Assembly: GCA_951406725.2 (NCBI GenBank)
Contig: OX597823.1
Location: 59,830,001-59,894,000 of the forward strand
From: Octopus vulgaris
Lineage: Eukaryota
DNA: 64,000 bases
Reading direction: 5' to 3'
Of the stretch, positions 1 through 9,457 are shown in pieces; position 1 is the stretch's first letter, and each line of letters starts with the position of its first letter. The notes beneath the pieces were generated by a model. That model was not told the origin of the DNA. It ran no database searches and saw only the letters and a program-made list of their open reading frames with translations. The position numbers were made by a program, and so were the translations under genes.

Positions 1-39
1 AAAGGATCTGTAAAAACTCTTTCCAGTTTTATAAAAATT

Positions 40-455
40 CCGTTAACTCTAAGCATTTTAAACTCTTCAGCATTTTAAACAGCCATACCCAGCTTTTTAC
101 ACCTACCATAAAATGTCATCCTAAAAATATACAATCACATCATCAAAATTTTAAAGCTACAAGATAATGCATGATTAATTCAAAACAATGTGGACAAAGA
201 AGCATTATGTTTGATAGAATAAGCTCATCAAAATAGGATTAAGGCTTCAGCGTTTAAATGGTCAAAATTTCTACCTGTTTTATGTTCAAGCAAGTGAGAT
301 CTGACCTCTCATACCTACCCTACAAAATTGTTCTCCAAATAAACAATCATATCATGAAAGTTTTGAAGCTATGAAGTAATGAATGATTAGTTCTAAACGA
401 TGTGAATAAATAACCATTACATGTCTAAAGAGTAACCTGAATGTTAAAGGATTAG
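40..455. mobile_element. Two adjacent degenerate copies of a TTAA-type (piggyBac-like) MITE
   Basis: ~42-222 and ~238-455 share 'acctacc..aaaat..caatcacatcat..aagcta..taatg.atgatta'. Ends resemble ttaaccctttagcatt / aatgttaaagggatta. Confidence 0.55.
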
Positions 456-733
456 GATGGTCAAATGTCCAGTCCTTAAAGCACCAGATAGATTGTCTTG
501 AAGTAATCATGCCAGTCCTTTGCACTCAGAGTCTAAATTAGATTAAAAAGCAAGAGGCCTACAGCAAGAGGCCTCATTCAGAGGTGAAACATATCACTGT
601 AAAACGTTAGATTATTCAACTTAATTAAATTAGAAATTCCCTTAGAGTTTAGTTGTAAGACCTATTCACTACCATCTGATAAGAAGCATATTCATACTTA
701 CTAAACACTCATATGTAGTCCTCAACATTGTCA

Positions 734-839
<106 letters not shown>

Positions 840-864
840 AAATAACAACAATAATAATAATAAT

Positions 865-1020
865 CCTTTCAACTAAAAGCACAAGGCCTGAAATTTTGGG
901 GGAGAGGACTGGTTGATTACATTGGCCCCAGTATTTCACTTGAACTTAATTTACCAACCCCGAAAGAATAAAAGGCAAAGTCAACCTCAATGGCATTAGA
1001 ACTTAGAATGTAGCAACAGG
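865..1020 (-). mobile_element. tRNA-derived SINE, family B (central 'gttgactttgcctttcatcctttcggggtcgataaaataagtaccag' domain, Meta-domain-like)
   Basis: Same family recurs at ~1880-2030(+), 2885-3070(-), 9925-10140(+), 18155-18365(-), 31465-31670(-), 34327-34540(-), 34650-34870(+), 37838-38285(- x2), 38700-38915(-), 52245-52465(-), 52765-53210 and 54000-54390(-). Confidence 0.8.
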
Positions 1021-1341
1021 TGAGCATCATAGCCATGTGTTGAGAAAAATTCTTTGGGGTTTGAATAATTCACCTCTGGAAACATGAGTGATTTGCTCTT
1101 CATCCTTAACCAACCCTTATTCAGGGACCTTTTGAGTAGGATGGGCTACTTGACCTAAAACAAATTCTAACTGGGCCCCCACCTGCAAAGTCATGTCCTG
1201 TTTATCTTGATATGTCATGCACATACGGTTGTGGTGCATGTGTTTGGTGTATTCTTATCAGACAGGTGGTCATAATGGATATATTGGCTTCGTATATTTT
1301 ACCCTAGTGCAACTTTGATGGCATGCACTGCTCTCTCACTC
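1021..1341 (+). mobile_element. 3' end of R4/Dong-like non-LTR retrotransposon with (TAA)n tail
   Basis: Begins with codons for HVLRKIL (compare LLGTAHILRKVL at RLE C-termini), then a long 3' UTR running into (AAT)n at 1342-1445. Confidence 0.5.
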
Positions 1342-1360
1342 AATAATAATAATAATAGTG

Positions 1361-1425
<65 letters not shown>

Positions 1426-1443
1426 GATAATAATACTAATAAT

Positions 1444-1476
<33 letters not shown>

Positions 1477-1500
1477 AAAACAAGTATAGTATTTAATGCT

Positions 1501-1601
1501 TTATAGGACATACATTTGTTTCATTAAAATGCCAAACTAATTACATAACAGTTGTTGGAACATTGAGTAATATTGCACTTCACCTCATCAGTATCCTGCA
1601 A
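1501..1601 (-). ncRNA. Type I hammerhead ribozyme with long stem II
   Basis: Minus strand: ttgcaggata CTGATGA ggtgaagtgc...gcattttaat GAAAC aaat GTA tgtcctataa. Stem I aggata/tgtcct, stem II gaagtgc/gcatttt, core intact, GUA cleavage triplet. Confidence 0.7.
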
Positions 1602-2163
1602 TATATATATATATATGCTAAAGAGCAGCCCATAACTATGCAGAGTATGGACATCAGTGTGTGAAGTATTTTAAAAATACCAGTTACCCCAATGTACATT
1701 GCTACATAGAAACTAATAAACTACTAAACATAGGATGTACCAGGACAAGCAAAAGAAGCGATATTAAAGTACATTAACTGAAATACAACTGGTAAAATTC
1801 AGTGCAGCAACTTCCCTAAATGACACATGGAAAAAATATCTATCTAAGTTGTAACATATATAGTAGTATTTCTCCCAATTTTACATTCTGAATTCAAATG
1901 CTACTAGGGTTGGCTTTACCTTTCATTCTTTTGGAATCAATAAGATAAGTACTAGATGAGCACTAGGATTGATGTCATTGACTTACCCACTTTCCAGAAA
2001 TCGCTGTCCTAATGCCAACATTTAAAATCAATGTGTTGTTAGAATACAGTCCAAGGAAGTTTATCAAGTTGAGGAGCGTTGTAGGTGCATGCAAAGAAAG
2101 AAAATGAACTCTATAAGTCTTATAATATGGACTGCAAATAAAAAGTTTTAACAAGTATAGGCA

Positions 2164-3352
2164 CAGGTAATGTCTGCTTCTTGTTGAAGTTATATATTTG
2201 TTCTCTTTGCTTGTTCCATATTCATCTCAGACAGGAAGCTTGTTTATATTGAAAGTAGTGAAGGTAACCAAAAGGAGAAATTGCACTAGACATCAACTAA
2301 GGTCACTTTCACGTGATGCCTAGTTGAATTTCCCACTCTATGTTATCTGCTCTGTCACTGGAGCCACTATGAGTCCACAGATAGGTGTGTTGGTGCCACA
2401 TTGAATCACTTTCTGAGAGGACACTATCGAATATTGTACTAAGTAGCTTGCTTATGGACATCACTGGTTCTGGGTTTAGTCCCACTGCGTGGCATCTATG
2501 GGCAAGTGTCTTCTACTATAACCTCGGGCTGACCAAAGCCTTGTGAGTGGATTTGATAGATGGAAACTGAAAGAAGCCCGTCGTATATATGTATATATAT
2601 ATATATGTGTGTGTATGTGTGTGTATGTGTTTGTCCCCCTAGCATTGCTTGACAACCGATGCTGGTGTGTTTATGTTACCATCACTTAGAGGCTCGGCAA
2701 AAAGAGACCGATAGAATAGGTACTGGGCTTACAAAGAAGAAGTCCCAGGGTCGATTTGCTCGACTAAAGGTAGTGCTCCTGCATGGCTGAAGTCAAATGA
2801 CTGAAACAAGTAAAAGAGTAGGTAGGATATTTTGTTATTGAACAAACTAGGCTTTGTTCAATAATGAAAGGTGTACTACTTCATAATGGTTTCAAATTTT
2901 GGCATAAAGTGAATTAAATCAACCCCATTGCTCAGCCAGTACTTATTTTATCAACCCTGAAAAGATGAAAGGCAAAGTCGGCCCCAGTAACATTTAAAGC
3001 CAGAACAAAAAGACAGCCGAAATGCTGCAAAGCCTTTTACCTGGAATGTTAATGATTCTGCCAGCTTACTGATTTAGTACAATATTCCATAGTGTCCTCT
3101 CAGAAAGTGATTCAATGTGGCACCAACACACCTATCTGTGGACTCATAGTGGCTCCAGTGACAGAGCAGATAACATAGAGTGGGAAATTCAACTAGGCAT
3201 CACGTGAAAGTGACCTTAGTTGATGTCTAGTGCAATTTCTCCTTTTGGTTACCTTCACTACTTTCAATATAAACAAGCTTCCTGTCTGAGATGAATATGG
3301 AACAAGCAAAGAGAACAAATATATAACTTCAACAAGAAGCAGACATTACCTG
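2164..3352. repeat. 279-bp inverted repeat (2164-2442 / 3074-3352) with 631-bp spacer
   Basis: Arms are reverse complements; one mismatch seen (2428/3088). Confidence 0.95.
2440..2820 (+). mobile_element. tRNA-derived SINE, family A (octopus OK/OR-like; internal TA/TG microsatellite, 'actgaaacaagtaaaagag' tail)
   Basis: Other copies at 4525-4935(-), 5895-6120(-), 6760-6990(-), 12410-12580(-), 20760-21310(-), 24925-25287(-), 30845-31250(-), 41405-41760(+), 43115-43540(-), 43855-44320(-), 47100-47280(+) and 51829-52240(+). Full copies have A/B-box-like heads. Confidence 0.85.
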
Positions 3353-4124
3353 CTGTAAAGTCAATATTTGGAATTAACGAATCAGTTAGTTGACATTTTT
3401 AATTAAAATTCTCGTGTTCTACTCCAGCACTTTAGTACATTTCATTTAATGTCTTTGTAGACAATATTCTTTGTTTCTTTCTTTTTCTTTTCTCTTTTTG
3501 TACTGTACATATATATTCACTGCCCTTTGTACGGTAAGGTACCTTCCTAGAGAAGTATGTGTGTCTATTTGCCATTATACATAACCATGTATTTTTACAA
3601 TTTCCTGGGAAGTGAGGTTAATCAGTACTTTTGCGTTCACCCATAAACACTTAAATTCAAAGTAAAAATTTTCTTACATTACTACTTTTTAAAAATTGTC
3701 TTTAATCATTTCAGCATACAAGATTAAGACTGTCGTTATATTTTATTTATTTAAAGATATATTTACTATTAATGTTGCTAAGTAATCTTTCATCTCCTCT
3801 GTATGCATTATTGAGGCATTTTGTTATGTTATATCTCAAGGCTTGTCAATGTAATTTTTAATTTCACAAAATTATTAATCTTTTATTTTTATGTATTTGT
3901 CCATTGACTAACCACTTAGAATAGCCATATCAGTATGTAGATTTGTTTATGTCTATTTCTGTATGTCTATTCATATTTCTATATATCAAAGTTCTTTTAA
4001 CATCTGAAGTTTCACGAGCTTTTATTTTTTTAAATAATGTTTCTAACATTGACAATTTGTACATATCTCTATATTCAGGCATTACATTCACACACACACA
4101 TTCATACACACACAGTGTGTGCGC

Positions 4125-4165
<41 letters not shown>

Positions 4166-4168
4166 TGT

Positions 4169-4205
<37 letters not shown>

Positions 4206-4315
4206 CTGGAATATATTTATGCTTCAAAGAAGATTGAGAAGACTACAGTTTCTTAAAGAACACAATGCATTAAAATAAAGAGCATACATTCATCTCTCAA
4301 GGATTAAATCTTTAC

Positions 4316-4349
<34 letters not shown>

Positions 4350-5121
4350 TATCATCGTCACTATCATCATCATTTAATGACTGTTTTCCATGCTGGCATG
4401 GGTTGAACAGTTTGACAGGAACTGGGTCAATCAGAGAGCTGCACCAAGTTCCAATTGTCTGTTTTGGTATGGTTTCTACAGCTGGATGATCTTCCTAGTG
4501 CCAACCAAATTTACTGAGTGTATTACTCTTTTACTTGTTTCAGTCATTTTGACTGCGGCCATGCTGGAGCACCACCTTTAGTCAAGCAAATCGACCCCAG
4601 GACTTATTCTTTGTAAGCCTAGTACATATACTATAGATCTCTTTTGCCGAACCGTTAAGTTATGGAGACATAAACACACCACCATCAGTTGTCAAGCGAT
4701 GTTGGGGGGAAAAAACACAGACACACAAACATATACACACACATACACACACACACATATATACATATATACGATGAGCTTCTTTCAGTTTCTGTCTACC
4801 AAATCCATTCACAAGGTTTTGGTCAGCTTGAGGCTATAGTAGAAGACACTTGCCCAAGGTGCCACGCAGAGGGACTGAACCCAGAACCATGTGGCTGGTA
4901 AGCCAGCTACTTACCACACAGCCACTCCTGTGCCTATATTAGGTGCTTTTTTTATGTGGCACCAGCTTACATAAATATCATTTCACATGTAAGAAGGTAT
5001 AATCAATAGTATACATGAATATTGCAGAATAAGATATAAAAGAGGCAATATCCTCTGAAGAAACAATTGCAGCAATGGAAGAAGTTCAAACTTAATAGAT
5101 TAAAGTACCATACCTACTCAT

Positions 5122-5625
5122 TCATCATCATCATCATCATCATCGTTTAACGTCCGCTTGCCATGCTAGCATGGGTTGGATGAATTTGACTGAGGGCTGG
5201 TGAACCACATGGCTGCACCAGGCTCCAATCTTGATCTGGCTGAGTTTCTACTGCTGGATGCCCTTCCTAACACCAACCCCTCCGAGAGTGTAGTGGGTGC
5301 TTTTTACATGCCACCGGCATGGGGGCCAGTCAGGCAGTACTGGCAATAAACTCGCTCGAATCTTTTTACACAGGTGCCAGTAAGGTGCCTTTTATGTGCC
5401 ACTGGCACGGAAGCCAGTTAGCCACTCTGGCAACGATCACACTCGGATGGTGCTCTAGGCACTCTACTAGCATGGCAGAAGTGCCGGTAAGGTAATGCTG
5501 GTAACAATCACACTCGAATGGTACCATTTATGTGCCAGTGGCACGGAAGCCAGTTAGCCACTCTGTCAACAATCATGCTCATATAGTGCCCTTTGCACCC
5601 TGCTAGCATGGATACCAGTCATCAA
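5122..5625 (-). mobile_element. RTE LINE 3' UTR fragment with (GAT)n tail
   Basis: Matches 27750-28200, which is contiguous with an RTE RT C-terminus. Confidence 0.8.
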
Positions 5626-6275
5626 ATTAAAATAAAAAATACGAGGCATGATGGGAGAAGTAAAAGATACTGAAAGCAGAAGCCTTGAATTATCTAGTTA
5701 TTTACTAATGAATATATTATATTGCTTTTGGCTATAAAACACAACATGTGTAAGAAATATATCCTGTAGCTAATGGTGTGTCTGTTAGCAAACTGGTGGA
5801 GTCTAGTTATAGATTCTACTGCTTAAAAGTAACAAATGAATTCAAAAGTTTTTAGTTTAAAATGTGAGTTACATTTTTAATGAACTATTTAATTCTTTTA
5901 TTCTTTACTTGTTTCGGTCATTTGGTCGTGGCCATGTTGGAGCATCGCCTTGATGAGTTTAAGTCAAACAAAATCGACTCCAAGACTTATTCTTTGTAAG
6001 CCTAGTACTTATTCTATCAGTATCTTTTGCTGAACCACTAAGTTATAAAGACATAAACACACCAATGCCAATTGTCAAGCAGTGATGGGGAACAAACACA
6101 GATGCAAAGTCACATACACACACATATATATATATACATTAATATATATATATATATATGTGTGTGTGTGTATGTGTATATATGTATAACTTTATTATAT
6201 TATATGTATATAACTATATGTATATAACTATATATATATAACATTATTTAACTTTTATATATATATGTGTGTGTG

Positions 6276-7754: not shown

Positions 7755-7882
7755 AGTAAAAATTTAGATTCAGATGAATATGGTACTTAAGTTGAGGCAC
7801 CAGAATTTAGTATGGTATTATCCATACAATTTAAAATAAGGGGATTATAATCAAAATAAGCAACAAGGTAATGCAGAGGTAA

Positions 7883-7969
7883 TACAGTACGAACGTTTCA
7901 TGCGACTCCATTTAATTGAACAATGCAAACATTACATAAATTTAAAATGTAGAGCAATCTTCAGCTGTA
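7883..7969 (-). ncRNA. Type I hammerhead ribozyme
   Basis: Minus strand: tacag CTGAAGA ttgc...gcat GAAAC gttc GTA ctgta. Core intact, 5-bp stem I. Confidence 0.75.
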
Positions 7970-8131
7970 CAAAAACATAGAATCTAATTAAATTTGAAGG
8001 ACGCATTAGTATAATTTTATCCAAAATCTCCAAGAGGATGAGGAGATAGACAAAGAACATATTTTACCAAAAACTTCGCAATTGTAACTCAAATTTAAAT
8101 CCTTCAAATTTAATTAAATTCTATGTTTATG

Positions 8132-8218
8132 TGTAGCTGAAGATTGCTCTACATTTTAAATTGATGTAATGTTTGTATTGTTCAATTAAATGGAGTCGCA
8201 TGAAGCAATCGTACTGCA
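8132..8218 (+). ncRNA. Type I hammerhead, mutated copy (GAAA to GAAG)
   Basis: tgtag CTGAAGA ttgc...gcat GAAGC aatc GTA ctgca. Confidence 0.6.
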
Positions 8219-8249
8219 TTACCTCTGGATATCCTTGTTGCTTATTTTG

Positions 8250-8308
<59 letters not shown>

Positions 8309-8490
8309 ACCGTTGGCCGATTTTTTCCTCTGTCTTCCCTTCTCTGGATCTTTCCTTCTCTTATGTTTCCGACGAAGAGCTCCGCTCGAAACGTTAAACC
8401 CTCCTTCTTGCCTTCTTTCCTGAGCGTCCAATAATACTATATTTGTTCCACGTCGCGTTGTTGTGTTTTTTTGTGTTTTCTTGTTTGGAT

Positions 8491-8495
<5 letters not shown>
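8309..8495 (+). mobile_element. Short PLE-type pLTR element with minimal hammerhead (8365-8399)
   Basis: gttt CCGACGA a gagc tcc gctc GAAAC GTT aaac (U4 to C in this copy). Homologous to 46185-46370; flanked by microsatellites. Confidence 0.7.
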
Positions 8496-8542
<47 letters not shown>

Positions 8543-8756
8543 AATAAATCTCTGAGCGAGATATAAACAGTAATTGCTCTATAACATAAGGGGGATCAGC
8601 CATCTGAATGTGGCTAGGGTCAGGGCGGGGTGGTGGGGGTGTTACTGATGCATTTAGCCCCAGGCGAACATCAACGTCACCAGAAGGGCTGACACCATCT
8701 CGGTGTCCTTGCCAGCCTGCAAAGGGAGATCAGCCTCCCCGAAGATACGGATACTA

Positions 8757-8799
8757 CACACGGACCGGTTTCGAGGTTATTGCCTCTTGTCAACGTATG
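8757..8799 (-). ncRNA. Type I hammerhead ribozyme, U3-A8 core variant
   Basis: Minus strand: catacg TTGACAA gagg caataa cctc GAAAC cg GTC cgtgtg. Confidence 0.8.
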
Positions 8800-9199
8800 G
8801 TAAGCACCGCTCTTCGTTGAGGGACTTCCCCTACAGGCTGGATATATAGGGATTTTCACAGTAACCACAGTCACTGGCGTAGAAAATCCGTTCGAAAACA
8901 ATAATAAATCTCTGAGCGAGATATAAACAGTAACTGCTCTATAACATAAGGGGGATCAGCCATCTGAATGTGGCTAGGGTCAGGGCGGGGTGGTGGGGGT
9001 GTTACTGATGCATTTAGCCCCAGGCGAACATCAACGTCACCAGAAGGGCTGACACCATCTCGGTGTCCTTGCCAGCCTGCAAAGGGAGATCAGCCTCCCC
9101 GACGATAACGGATTTTCTACGCCAGTGGCTGTGGTTACTGTGAAAATCCCTATATATCCAGCCTGTAGGGGAAGTCCCTCAACGAAGAGCGGTGCTTAC

Positions 9200-9242
9200 C
9201 ATACGTTGACAAGAGGCAATAACCTCGAAACCGGTCCGTGTG
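9200..9242 (+). ncRNA. Type I hammerhead ribozyme, U3-A8 core variant (inverted copy)
   Basis: catacg TTGACAA gagg caataa cctc GAAAC cg GTC cgtgtg; predicted cleavage after C9236. Confidence 0.8.
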
Positions 9243-9419
9243 TAGTATCCGTATCTTCGGGGAGGCTGATCTCCCTTTGCAGGCTGGCAAGGACACCGAG
9301 ATGGTGTCAGCCCTTCTGGTGACGTTGATGTTCGCCTGGGGCTAAATGCATCAGTAACACCCCCACCACCCCGCCCTGACCCTAGCCACATTCAGATGGC
9401 TGATCCCCCTTATGTTATA

Positions 9420-9457
<38 letters not shown>

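Follow-up and report, generated by a model that had tools for sequence, protein, structure and literature searches.

The 360-nt repeat described here is probably a non-autonomous retrozyme whose insertion into (TA)n tracts relies on the reverse transcriptase (RT) and GIY-YIG nuclease of Neptune-like Penelope-like elements (PLEs) acting in trans, an interpretation drawn from genome sequence to which we assign a probability of about 0.8. The family appears to be a new and young addition to the animal non-LTR retrozymes, a kind of element that has already been described, and it would provide unusually direct genomic evidence, at the level of integration, for the mobilisation of retrozymes by PLEs. 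In the available text of PMC7229834 and of Li et al. 2026, such mobilisation is a proposal without integration-level evidence. Literature searches found neither the 360-nt family (the supplements of retrozyme papers may list cephalopod examples) nor unit-PLE chimeras of the kind presented below, and the repeat may be catalogued in Repbase or Dfam under another name. The value of the family lies in the mechanistic record left by its insertions.

In the copy located in the window (the whole stretch of 64,000 nucleotides of Octopus vulgaris DNA that was analysed), the unit at 8539-8898 repeats with a period of exactly 360 bp (8539 to 8899). The tandem part at 8899-9102 comprises 204 bp and has one mismatch (8574 T / 8934 C), and the inverted copy of 313 bp also has one mismatch; re-measurement thus confirmed this arrangement as the earlier note had given it, together with the (TA)n tracts on both flanks (table 1). 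Read in the sense of the ribozyme strand, the insertion consists of two arms that are joined 5′-to-5′, of which the minus arm spans roughly 1.6 units, its end lying 42 nt inside a further unit, and the plus arm of 313 nt ends at unit position 360. The unit had also been called GC-rich and free of any meaningful ORF, and both descriptions hold: its GC content is 50% against 33.8% in the window, all six frames of the unit concatemer contain a stop codon on each lap, and the longest ATG frame of the concatemer, on the strand opposite to the ribozyme, encodes 70 aa. The window copy contains one ribozyme per strand because the 204-bp partial copy ends before the ribozyme, which points to a young daughter insertion that could not have released a monomer.

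Table 1. Features of the window copy and of its target flanks.
Feature	Position	Strand	Remark
(TA)22 tract, left target flank	8495-8538	.	
42-nt 'tail', unit positions 1-42 in RNA sense; main-arm 3′ end, downstream initiation site	8538-8579	-	family-wide 3′ ends at 38-46
One full 360-nt unit, RNA sense (ribozyme strand)	8580-8939	-	
Type I hammerhead, U3:A8 core; predicted cut between 8763 and 8762	8757-8799	-	
Upstream unit of the main arm, 5′-truncated; stops before ribozyme	8940-9102	-	
5′-to-5′ junction of arms, 6-7-nt common word ACGGAT	9103-9113	.	
Inverted arm, unit positions 48-360, untailed 3′ end	9107-9419	+	
Second hammerhead copy, inverted arm; predicted cut between 9236 and 9237	9200-9242	+	
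(TA)n tract, right target flank	9416-9453	.	

Several further features surround the insertion. The stretch at 8310-8494 is the 3′ end of a different repeat, which carries a minimal hammerhead-like motif (CCGACGAAGAGCTCCGCTCGAAACGTT) and ends in the (TA)n that also served as target for the unit; related sequence is found flanking L044/L131, next to an RT and GIY-YIG fragment of a third PLE family. At 7846-8255 there is an inverted repeat with 156-bp arms that are 92% complementary, which adjoins a (TA)n tract and is probably another inverted insertion. If the locus were read through, its transcript (8580-9419) would fold into a double-stranded stem of 313 bp, on which RNA editing or small-RNA pathways would be likely to act.

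The possibility that the unit is single-copy, which the earlier note had named as a ground for refutation, is contradicted by the search of the genome (2.8 Gb, 227 contigs), where a 27-nt marker word has 959 exact matches, the U3:A8 core pattern 125 and the C3:G8 core patterns 98. Reversed control patterns of the marker and the cores had no match, and the same anatomy recurs with different breakpoints at dozens of loci on many contigs; the structure in the window is therefore neither due to chance nor, as had been considered, an assembly artefact. Four lineages were found. Lineage U is that of the window copy; lineage C has a C3:G8 core, 89-91% identity to U and near-identical copies on different contigs; lineage D shows about 82% identity and has U3·G8 or U3:A8 cores. 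The older sister family T (2501 search candidates) has 57-60% identity, a length of 352-358 nt, a colinear order, head-to-tail wrapping and the canonical core. Lineages U and T retain common length, order, ribozyme and 3′ tail, of which the tail is the best-kept part, with 19 of 20 positions identical in a 20-column scan against 57% overall. The earlier description of a young, dispersed, non-coding hammerhead unit is supported.

The hammerhead consists of stem I CAUACG/CGUGUG, the core UUGACAA, stem II GAGG/CCUC, GAAA and the palindromic ACCGGU, and the cut is predicted after C. The earlier claim that a type I hammerhead lies inside the unit stood, as its pairs covary, with one correction: both window copies have the core UUGACAA, with U3:A8 in place of the canonical C3:G8, and Rfam at the gathering threshold gave no match anywhere in the window. 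The pairs are intact in 96.5% of cells among 22 copies, compared with 24-51% in slid controls, and compensatory (double) changes occur at 6 of the 18 pairs, including the 3:8 pair (UA 9, CG 8, UG 4). The 22 related copies of this set were selected with the ribozyme pattern, and the shuffle counts, in which two of five measures were not exceeded (78 and 410 of 500), are therefore not probabilities. Taken together, the predicted type I hammerhead is real but non-canonical, its U3:A8 covarying with the C3:G8 and U3·G8 of sister subfamilies. U3-A8 is a known natural hammerhead variant of Schistosoma PLEs (PMC4209133), and the octopus family would offer a natural C3:G8 / U3·G8 / U3:A8 series for studying the chemistry of the hammerhead core.

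The ribozyme strand of the unit (8539-8898, minus) folds well, with z = -4.2 relative to shuffles, and when the unit is folded as a circle z is -5.5 for the ribozyme strand and -1.2 for the other one. Folded by itself, the 56-nt ribozyme is no more stable than shuffles (z -1.1), and the active structure is not the one of lowest energy, which would be expected of a short palindromic stem III; hammerheads with such a stem act as dimers (PMC4209133). In the part of Li et al. 2026 available, 8 of 9 predicted retrozyme dimers did not cleave. An apparent hammerhead, read by eye, is also present in the terminal repeat of one of the PLE families discussed below (PLE-A, L150-L159), with a swapped G3:C8 core (GUGAACA) and a 7-bp stem I.

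The way in which the unit is inserted follows that of PLEs. The signature of the latter is a partial tandem, a 5′ inverted copy and one tailed end (Craig et al. 2021; PMC3846280), where the tail represents the spacing of two internal sites at which the RT starts (Frangieh et al. 2024, PMC11167929) and both target strands are cut and extended (PMC11167929). The unit shows a partial tandem, a 5′ inversion, a tail at one end and a microsatellite target. The first set of insertions was obtained from 99 loci by removing 15 loci that repeated an insertion already present and 4 that were segmental duplicates, and its 80 members comprise 40 simple inverted, 34 single-arm and 6 complex insertions. Their 3′ ends are bimodal, at positions 353-360 or 38-46, as was also seen in the later sets, and thus there are two fixed internal 3′ ends about 42 nt apart. 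One tailed arm is paired with one untailed arm in 36 of 40 simple inverted insertions of the first set, in all 11 of those among 18 C3:G8 loci (chimera L120 excluded) and in 20 of 21 among 36 loci picked by the marker word alone, overall in 67 of 72, where independent choice would give about half. The junctions between arms range from 13-nt overlaps to 30-nt gaps. Flanking direct repeats of 8-14 nt, a length that includes overlap with the end letters of the element, accompany 16 of 30 non-TA insertions, compared with 30 of 870 mismatched flank pairs, and 50 of the 80 insertions touch (TA)5 or longer tracts. The PLE-type insertion architecture that had been proposed from the window copy alone is, with the tail rule and the (TA)n targets, upheld across the family.

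The same anatomy makes it very improbable that the unit is mobilised by LINE twin priming or has spread as a DNA satellite or MITE. Superficially, the inverted ends are MITE-like, and L1 twin priming also yields inversions with microhomology; in twin priming, however, the position of one arm's inner end follows from the outer end of the opposite arm, whereas the inner breakpoints observed here are random. Furthermore, there is no poly(A) or repeat tail, the two fixed internal 3′ ends are distributed with one type per arm, and the fusions that were found are fusions with PLEs.

Only two of the 135 unit insertions (80 + 19 + 36) form chimeras with PLEs, located at G000 C2 ~59.070-59.073 Mb and C4 ~97.902-97.913 Mb, and no further unit-PLE chimera was found in 30 family-T loci or 70 tail-selected loci. 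In L209, which lies wholly inside (TA)n, a C3:G8 unit arm is joined 5′-to-5′ to a PLE-B arm that runs from mid-RT to the tailed end; the junction contains interleaved unit/PLE/unit/PLE pieces with 1-4-nt overlaps, and the two arms share 97.9% and 98.9% identity with their respective closest relatives. In L130, the 5′ end of the unit continues into 451 nt of the PLE-A RT; the opposite arm consists of PLE-A sequence through to its 3′ end and was later interrupted by an insert of about 6.6 kb. These two chimeric insertions lend direct support to the earlier suggestion of mobilisation by PLE RT/GIY-YIG, and a chimera whose arms derive from different RNAs is informative about the origin of PLE inversions. 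Against a single event, the unit arm of L209 ends at position 134, off the usual end rule, and L130 lacks a tail at either outer end, shows an odd inverted duplication on its right side and has no readable target duplication. As both loci break the usual end rule, it is possible that each represents two separate events with a deletion. PLE pieces near L044, L224/L256, L246, L281, L284, L297, L298 and L310 were rejected as chimeras, being set apart by (TA)n or flank, and are read as independent insertions at the same targets.

Both partners are young PLEs that appear Neptune-like by motif. We use this term because the ORFs of PLE-A and PLE-B have a cysteine finger (CX2-5CXXC) before the C-terminal GIY-YIG, following the available definition of Craig et al.; this finger also occurs in Nematis. 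For PLE-A, 27 matches with 78-100% amino-acid identity are listed, and the other 88 of 115 scored matches form a group at 63-64% that includes PLE-B and has open frames of up to 1312 aa. The GIY-YIG of PLE-A passes the Pfam cut-off, and PLE-B has no Pfam match. The unit has a tail of 42 nt, compared with 57 nt for PLE-B and about 62 nt for PLE-A, and homology of the unit tail with the PLE tails, plausible by eye, was rejected as not significant (p 0.06-0.96). Since the tails differ in length and are not significantly alike in sequence, the main driver may be some further PLE, neither PLE-A nor PLE-B, and these differences also weigh against reading the chimeras as single events. With candidate partners that have open ORFs (PLE-B, 1312 aa) and two RT start sites predicted within a few bases, the question of retrozyme mobilisation becomes amenable to a direct in vitro test.

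An insertion anatomy identical to that of PLEs could also arise if the unit were the pLTR of an autonomous PLE not found here, of which all copies would be 5′-truncated ends. There is a precedent in Xenopus, where 24 of 57 retrozyme families resemble known elements, nearly all of them PLE ends (Li et al. 2026, as far as available), and the loci inspected are a minority of the 959 marker matches. We nevertheless consider this explanation improbable. What sits upstream of the unit is the previous unit, for up to 5.6 laps; free 5′ ends share no outside sequence (0 of 27 shared-flank pairs join two of the 37 free 5′ ends); and the 72 distinct tail matches from 70 further loci are followed by flank, unit or family T only, with no shared ORF-like sequence after the tail. 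No unit-like terminal repeat was found in 20 loci of the two young families PLE-A and PLE-B; their terminal repeats are unrelated to the unit, which was therefore rejected as the terminal repeat of either. An RT and GIY-YIG ORF bounded by the repeat was not encountered at the loci examined, so the unit is at none of them the terminal repeat of a coding PLE, the form of refutation that the earlier note had raised. Finally, family T has the same closed unit of 352-358 nt at 57-60% identity and also wraps head to tail.

Which form of RNA would serve as the template for a retrozyme of this kind can be approached from the ends and lengths of the arms. There is no excess of 5′ ends at the ribozyme cut (7 of 122 against 5.2 expected, 1 of 45 against 1.1, and 4 of 35 against 2.8); the longest arm comprises 2024 nt, or 5.6 units, and 19 of the 132 arms of the first set cross the cut site at least twice. 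A cleaved linear monomer was therefore rejected as the template. An apparent peak of 5′ ends at unit positions 1-3 is likely an alignment-boundary artefact, judging from L006, the one locus inspected by eye. Divergence between units is 1.5% within an arm, 1.8% between arms and 4.1% between loci, the marks of a subfamily are common within a locus, and no array exceeds 7 ribozyme matches among the 98 C3:G8 or the first 100 U3:A8 matches; the common marks and the lack of listed large arrays favour repeated passage through a unit-length form, of the kind that rolling-circle copying involves. On the other hand, the multi-unit arms L132, L133, L134 and L135 have variants common to only some of their units, which counts against a pure monomer circle, as it does not predict them. 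In L134 (G000 C3 ~51.540-51.542 Mb), five tandem units have three linked variable sites with a period of three units, a pattern that could stem from a multimeric circle, from a mixed linear multimer or from gene conversion, and possibly reflects reverse transcription around a trimeric circle. We incline towards a circle as the template and give an uncleaved multimer a nearly even chance.

Going further, the unit could be a PLE-mobilised repeat that moves only as uncleaved linear multimers from source arrays, with a ribozyme that is weak or serves another purpose and with no circle. The Anolis PLE uses mainly uncleaved RNA as its substrate, and mutation of its ribozyme leaves insertion normal (PMC11167929, available text); variants common to subsets of units would fit a mixed multimer template, and U3·G8 subfamilies have spread. 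We regard this as possible but on the whole doubtful, considering that, with median arms of 210-503 nt, linear descent alone would shorten arrays in each round, that arms of 3-5.6 units recur although the matches inspected hold no array above the size given, and that 40% divergence has left the unit length and the ribozyme pairing intact. Alternatively, and tentatively, with somewhat less than even odds, the family may be a viroid-like circular RNA lineage of about 360 nt in which about 40% of the sequence has been replaced and length, ribozyme and a tail 'packaging signal' have been kept. Such a lineage would parasitise dimeric Neptune PLE complexes, would be copied by rolling-circle reverse transcription from two fixed sites (once perhaps on a three-unit circle, L134) and could share an integration event with PLE mRNA. 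If true, this would be the first direct record of the integration step of a retrozyme, and it would speak against an origin of PLE inversions by fold-back self-priming. Contigs from four runs of presumed kind, which belong to four studies and two organism codes, span 29-30 of 30 unit bins, and two of them bridge the head-to-tail joint, which is also present in genomic DNA, strand and level being unreadable. The contig of run X13, whose RNA status is a guess, has C, the canonical letter, at hammerhead position 3 over window 8656-8898.

For PLE-driven retrozyme insertion, which we prefer, the following sequence of steps may be proposed. A multi-unit locus would be transcribed, and tandem hammerheads, probably acting as dimers because stem III is weak and palindromic, would excise monomers that a host ligase may circularise, as in other retrozymes. 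The PLE protein would then bind the conserved tail region and nick both AT-rich strands about 8-14 nt apart, and cDNA synthesis would start on each strand at one of two fixed internal sites that are separated by 42 nt; of this step the ends and duplications are observed. The RT would copy a circle or an uncleaved multimer over as many as 5.6 units, with no halt at the ribozyme site. Lastly, the two cDNA 5′ ends, whose junctions are observed, would be joined by microhomology.

The unit shares its features with several known systems. As in non-LTR retrozymes, a tandem unit of 150-450 nt contains a type I hammerhead (360-nt period, arms to 2024 nt), there is neither protein nor LTR architecture (closed frames, ends inside the unit), and dispersed copies (959 matches) have target duplications of more than 4 bp (16/30 against 30/870). 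The closest in size among the animal non-LTR retrozymes in the available part of Cervera & de la Peña 2020 (PMC7229834) is the 350-390-nt family of Mytilus galloprovincialis. Similar to the mussel-type retrozymes of that source, the octopus family has a non-coding tandem unit of a few hundred nucleotides that coexists with PLEs, a type I hammerhead with a weak palindromic stem III and a strongly folded ribozyme strand, and its target duplications exceed 4 bp as in animal retrozymes (PMC7229834). It differs from them in its U3:A8 and U3·G8 cores, its dispersed insertions of 1-6 units and its inverted arms, the word 'inverted' being absent from the main text of PMC7229834; its GC content of 50% lies at the upper edge of the <45-50% given there. 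Circles and cleavage are known by experiment in the available text of PMC7229834 and PLE mobilisation is only proposed, whereas in the present family the genomic copies support PLE mobilisation, and cleavage and circles are predicted.

With the vertebrate non-LTR retrozymes (Li, Clavereau & Pollet 2026, bioRxiv 10.64898/2026.07.22.740005, in the part available) the family has in common the non-autonomous use of PLE enzymes. The evidence there is co-occurrence and pLTR similarity, whereas here no similar pLTR was found and the evidence consists of insertion scars and chimeras. A ribozyme in each of two consecutive units, by which Li et al. 2026 define 'active', is present in the family (19/132 arms) and absent from the window copy. 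Like the EN+ PLEs (Poseidon_Ac, PMC11167929; Neptune/Naiad, Craig et al. 2021, as available), the unit has partial tandems, a 5′ inverted copy, an optional one-end tail from two internal RT starts, and AT-rich or microsatellite targets; unlike them, it is a closed repeating unit that has no ORF and a tail not recognisably related to those of PLE-A and PLE-B. The minimal hammerheads of the Schistosoma PLE Cercyon (Cervera & de la Peña 2014, PMC4209133, as available) show the same covariation of the U3-A8 core, whereas here a full-size ribozyme lies in a non-coding unit and C3:G8, U3·G8 and U3:A8 all occur in one lineage.

Some observations concern the PLE partners themselves. PLE-B (L160-L167) is present in many near-identical copies with an open frame of 1310-1312 aa that contains a long asparagine-rich insert; it has a minimal hammerhead-like motif, its 57-nt tail overlaps the ORF start, and in its own inverted insertions, too, a tailed arm is paired with an untailed one. 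In L130, the last 28 nt of the unit and about 130 nt of flank are duplicated (8630-8911) as a near-perfect inverted repeat around (TA)n, and positions 1-6040 contain tandem copies of a zinc-knuckle-ORF element, part of which interrupts the PLE-A arm.
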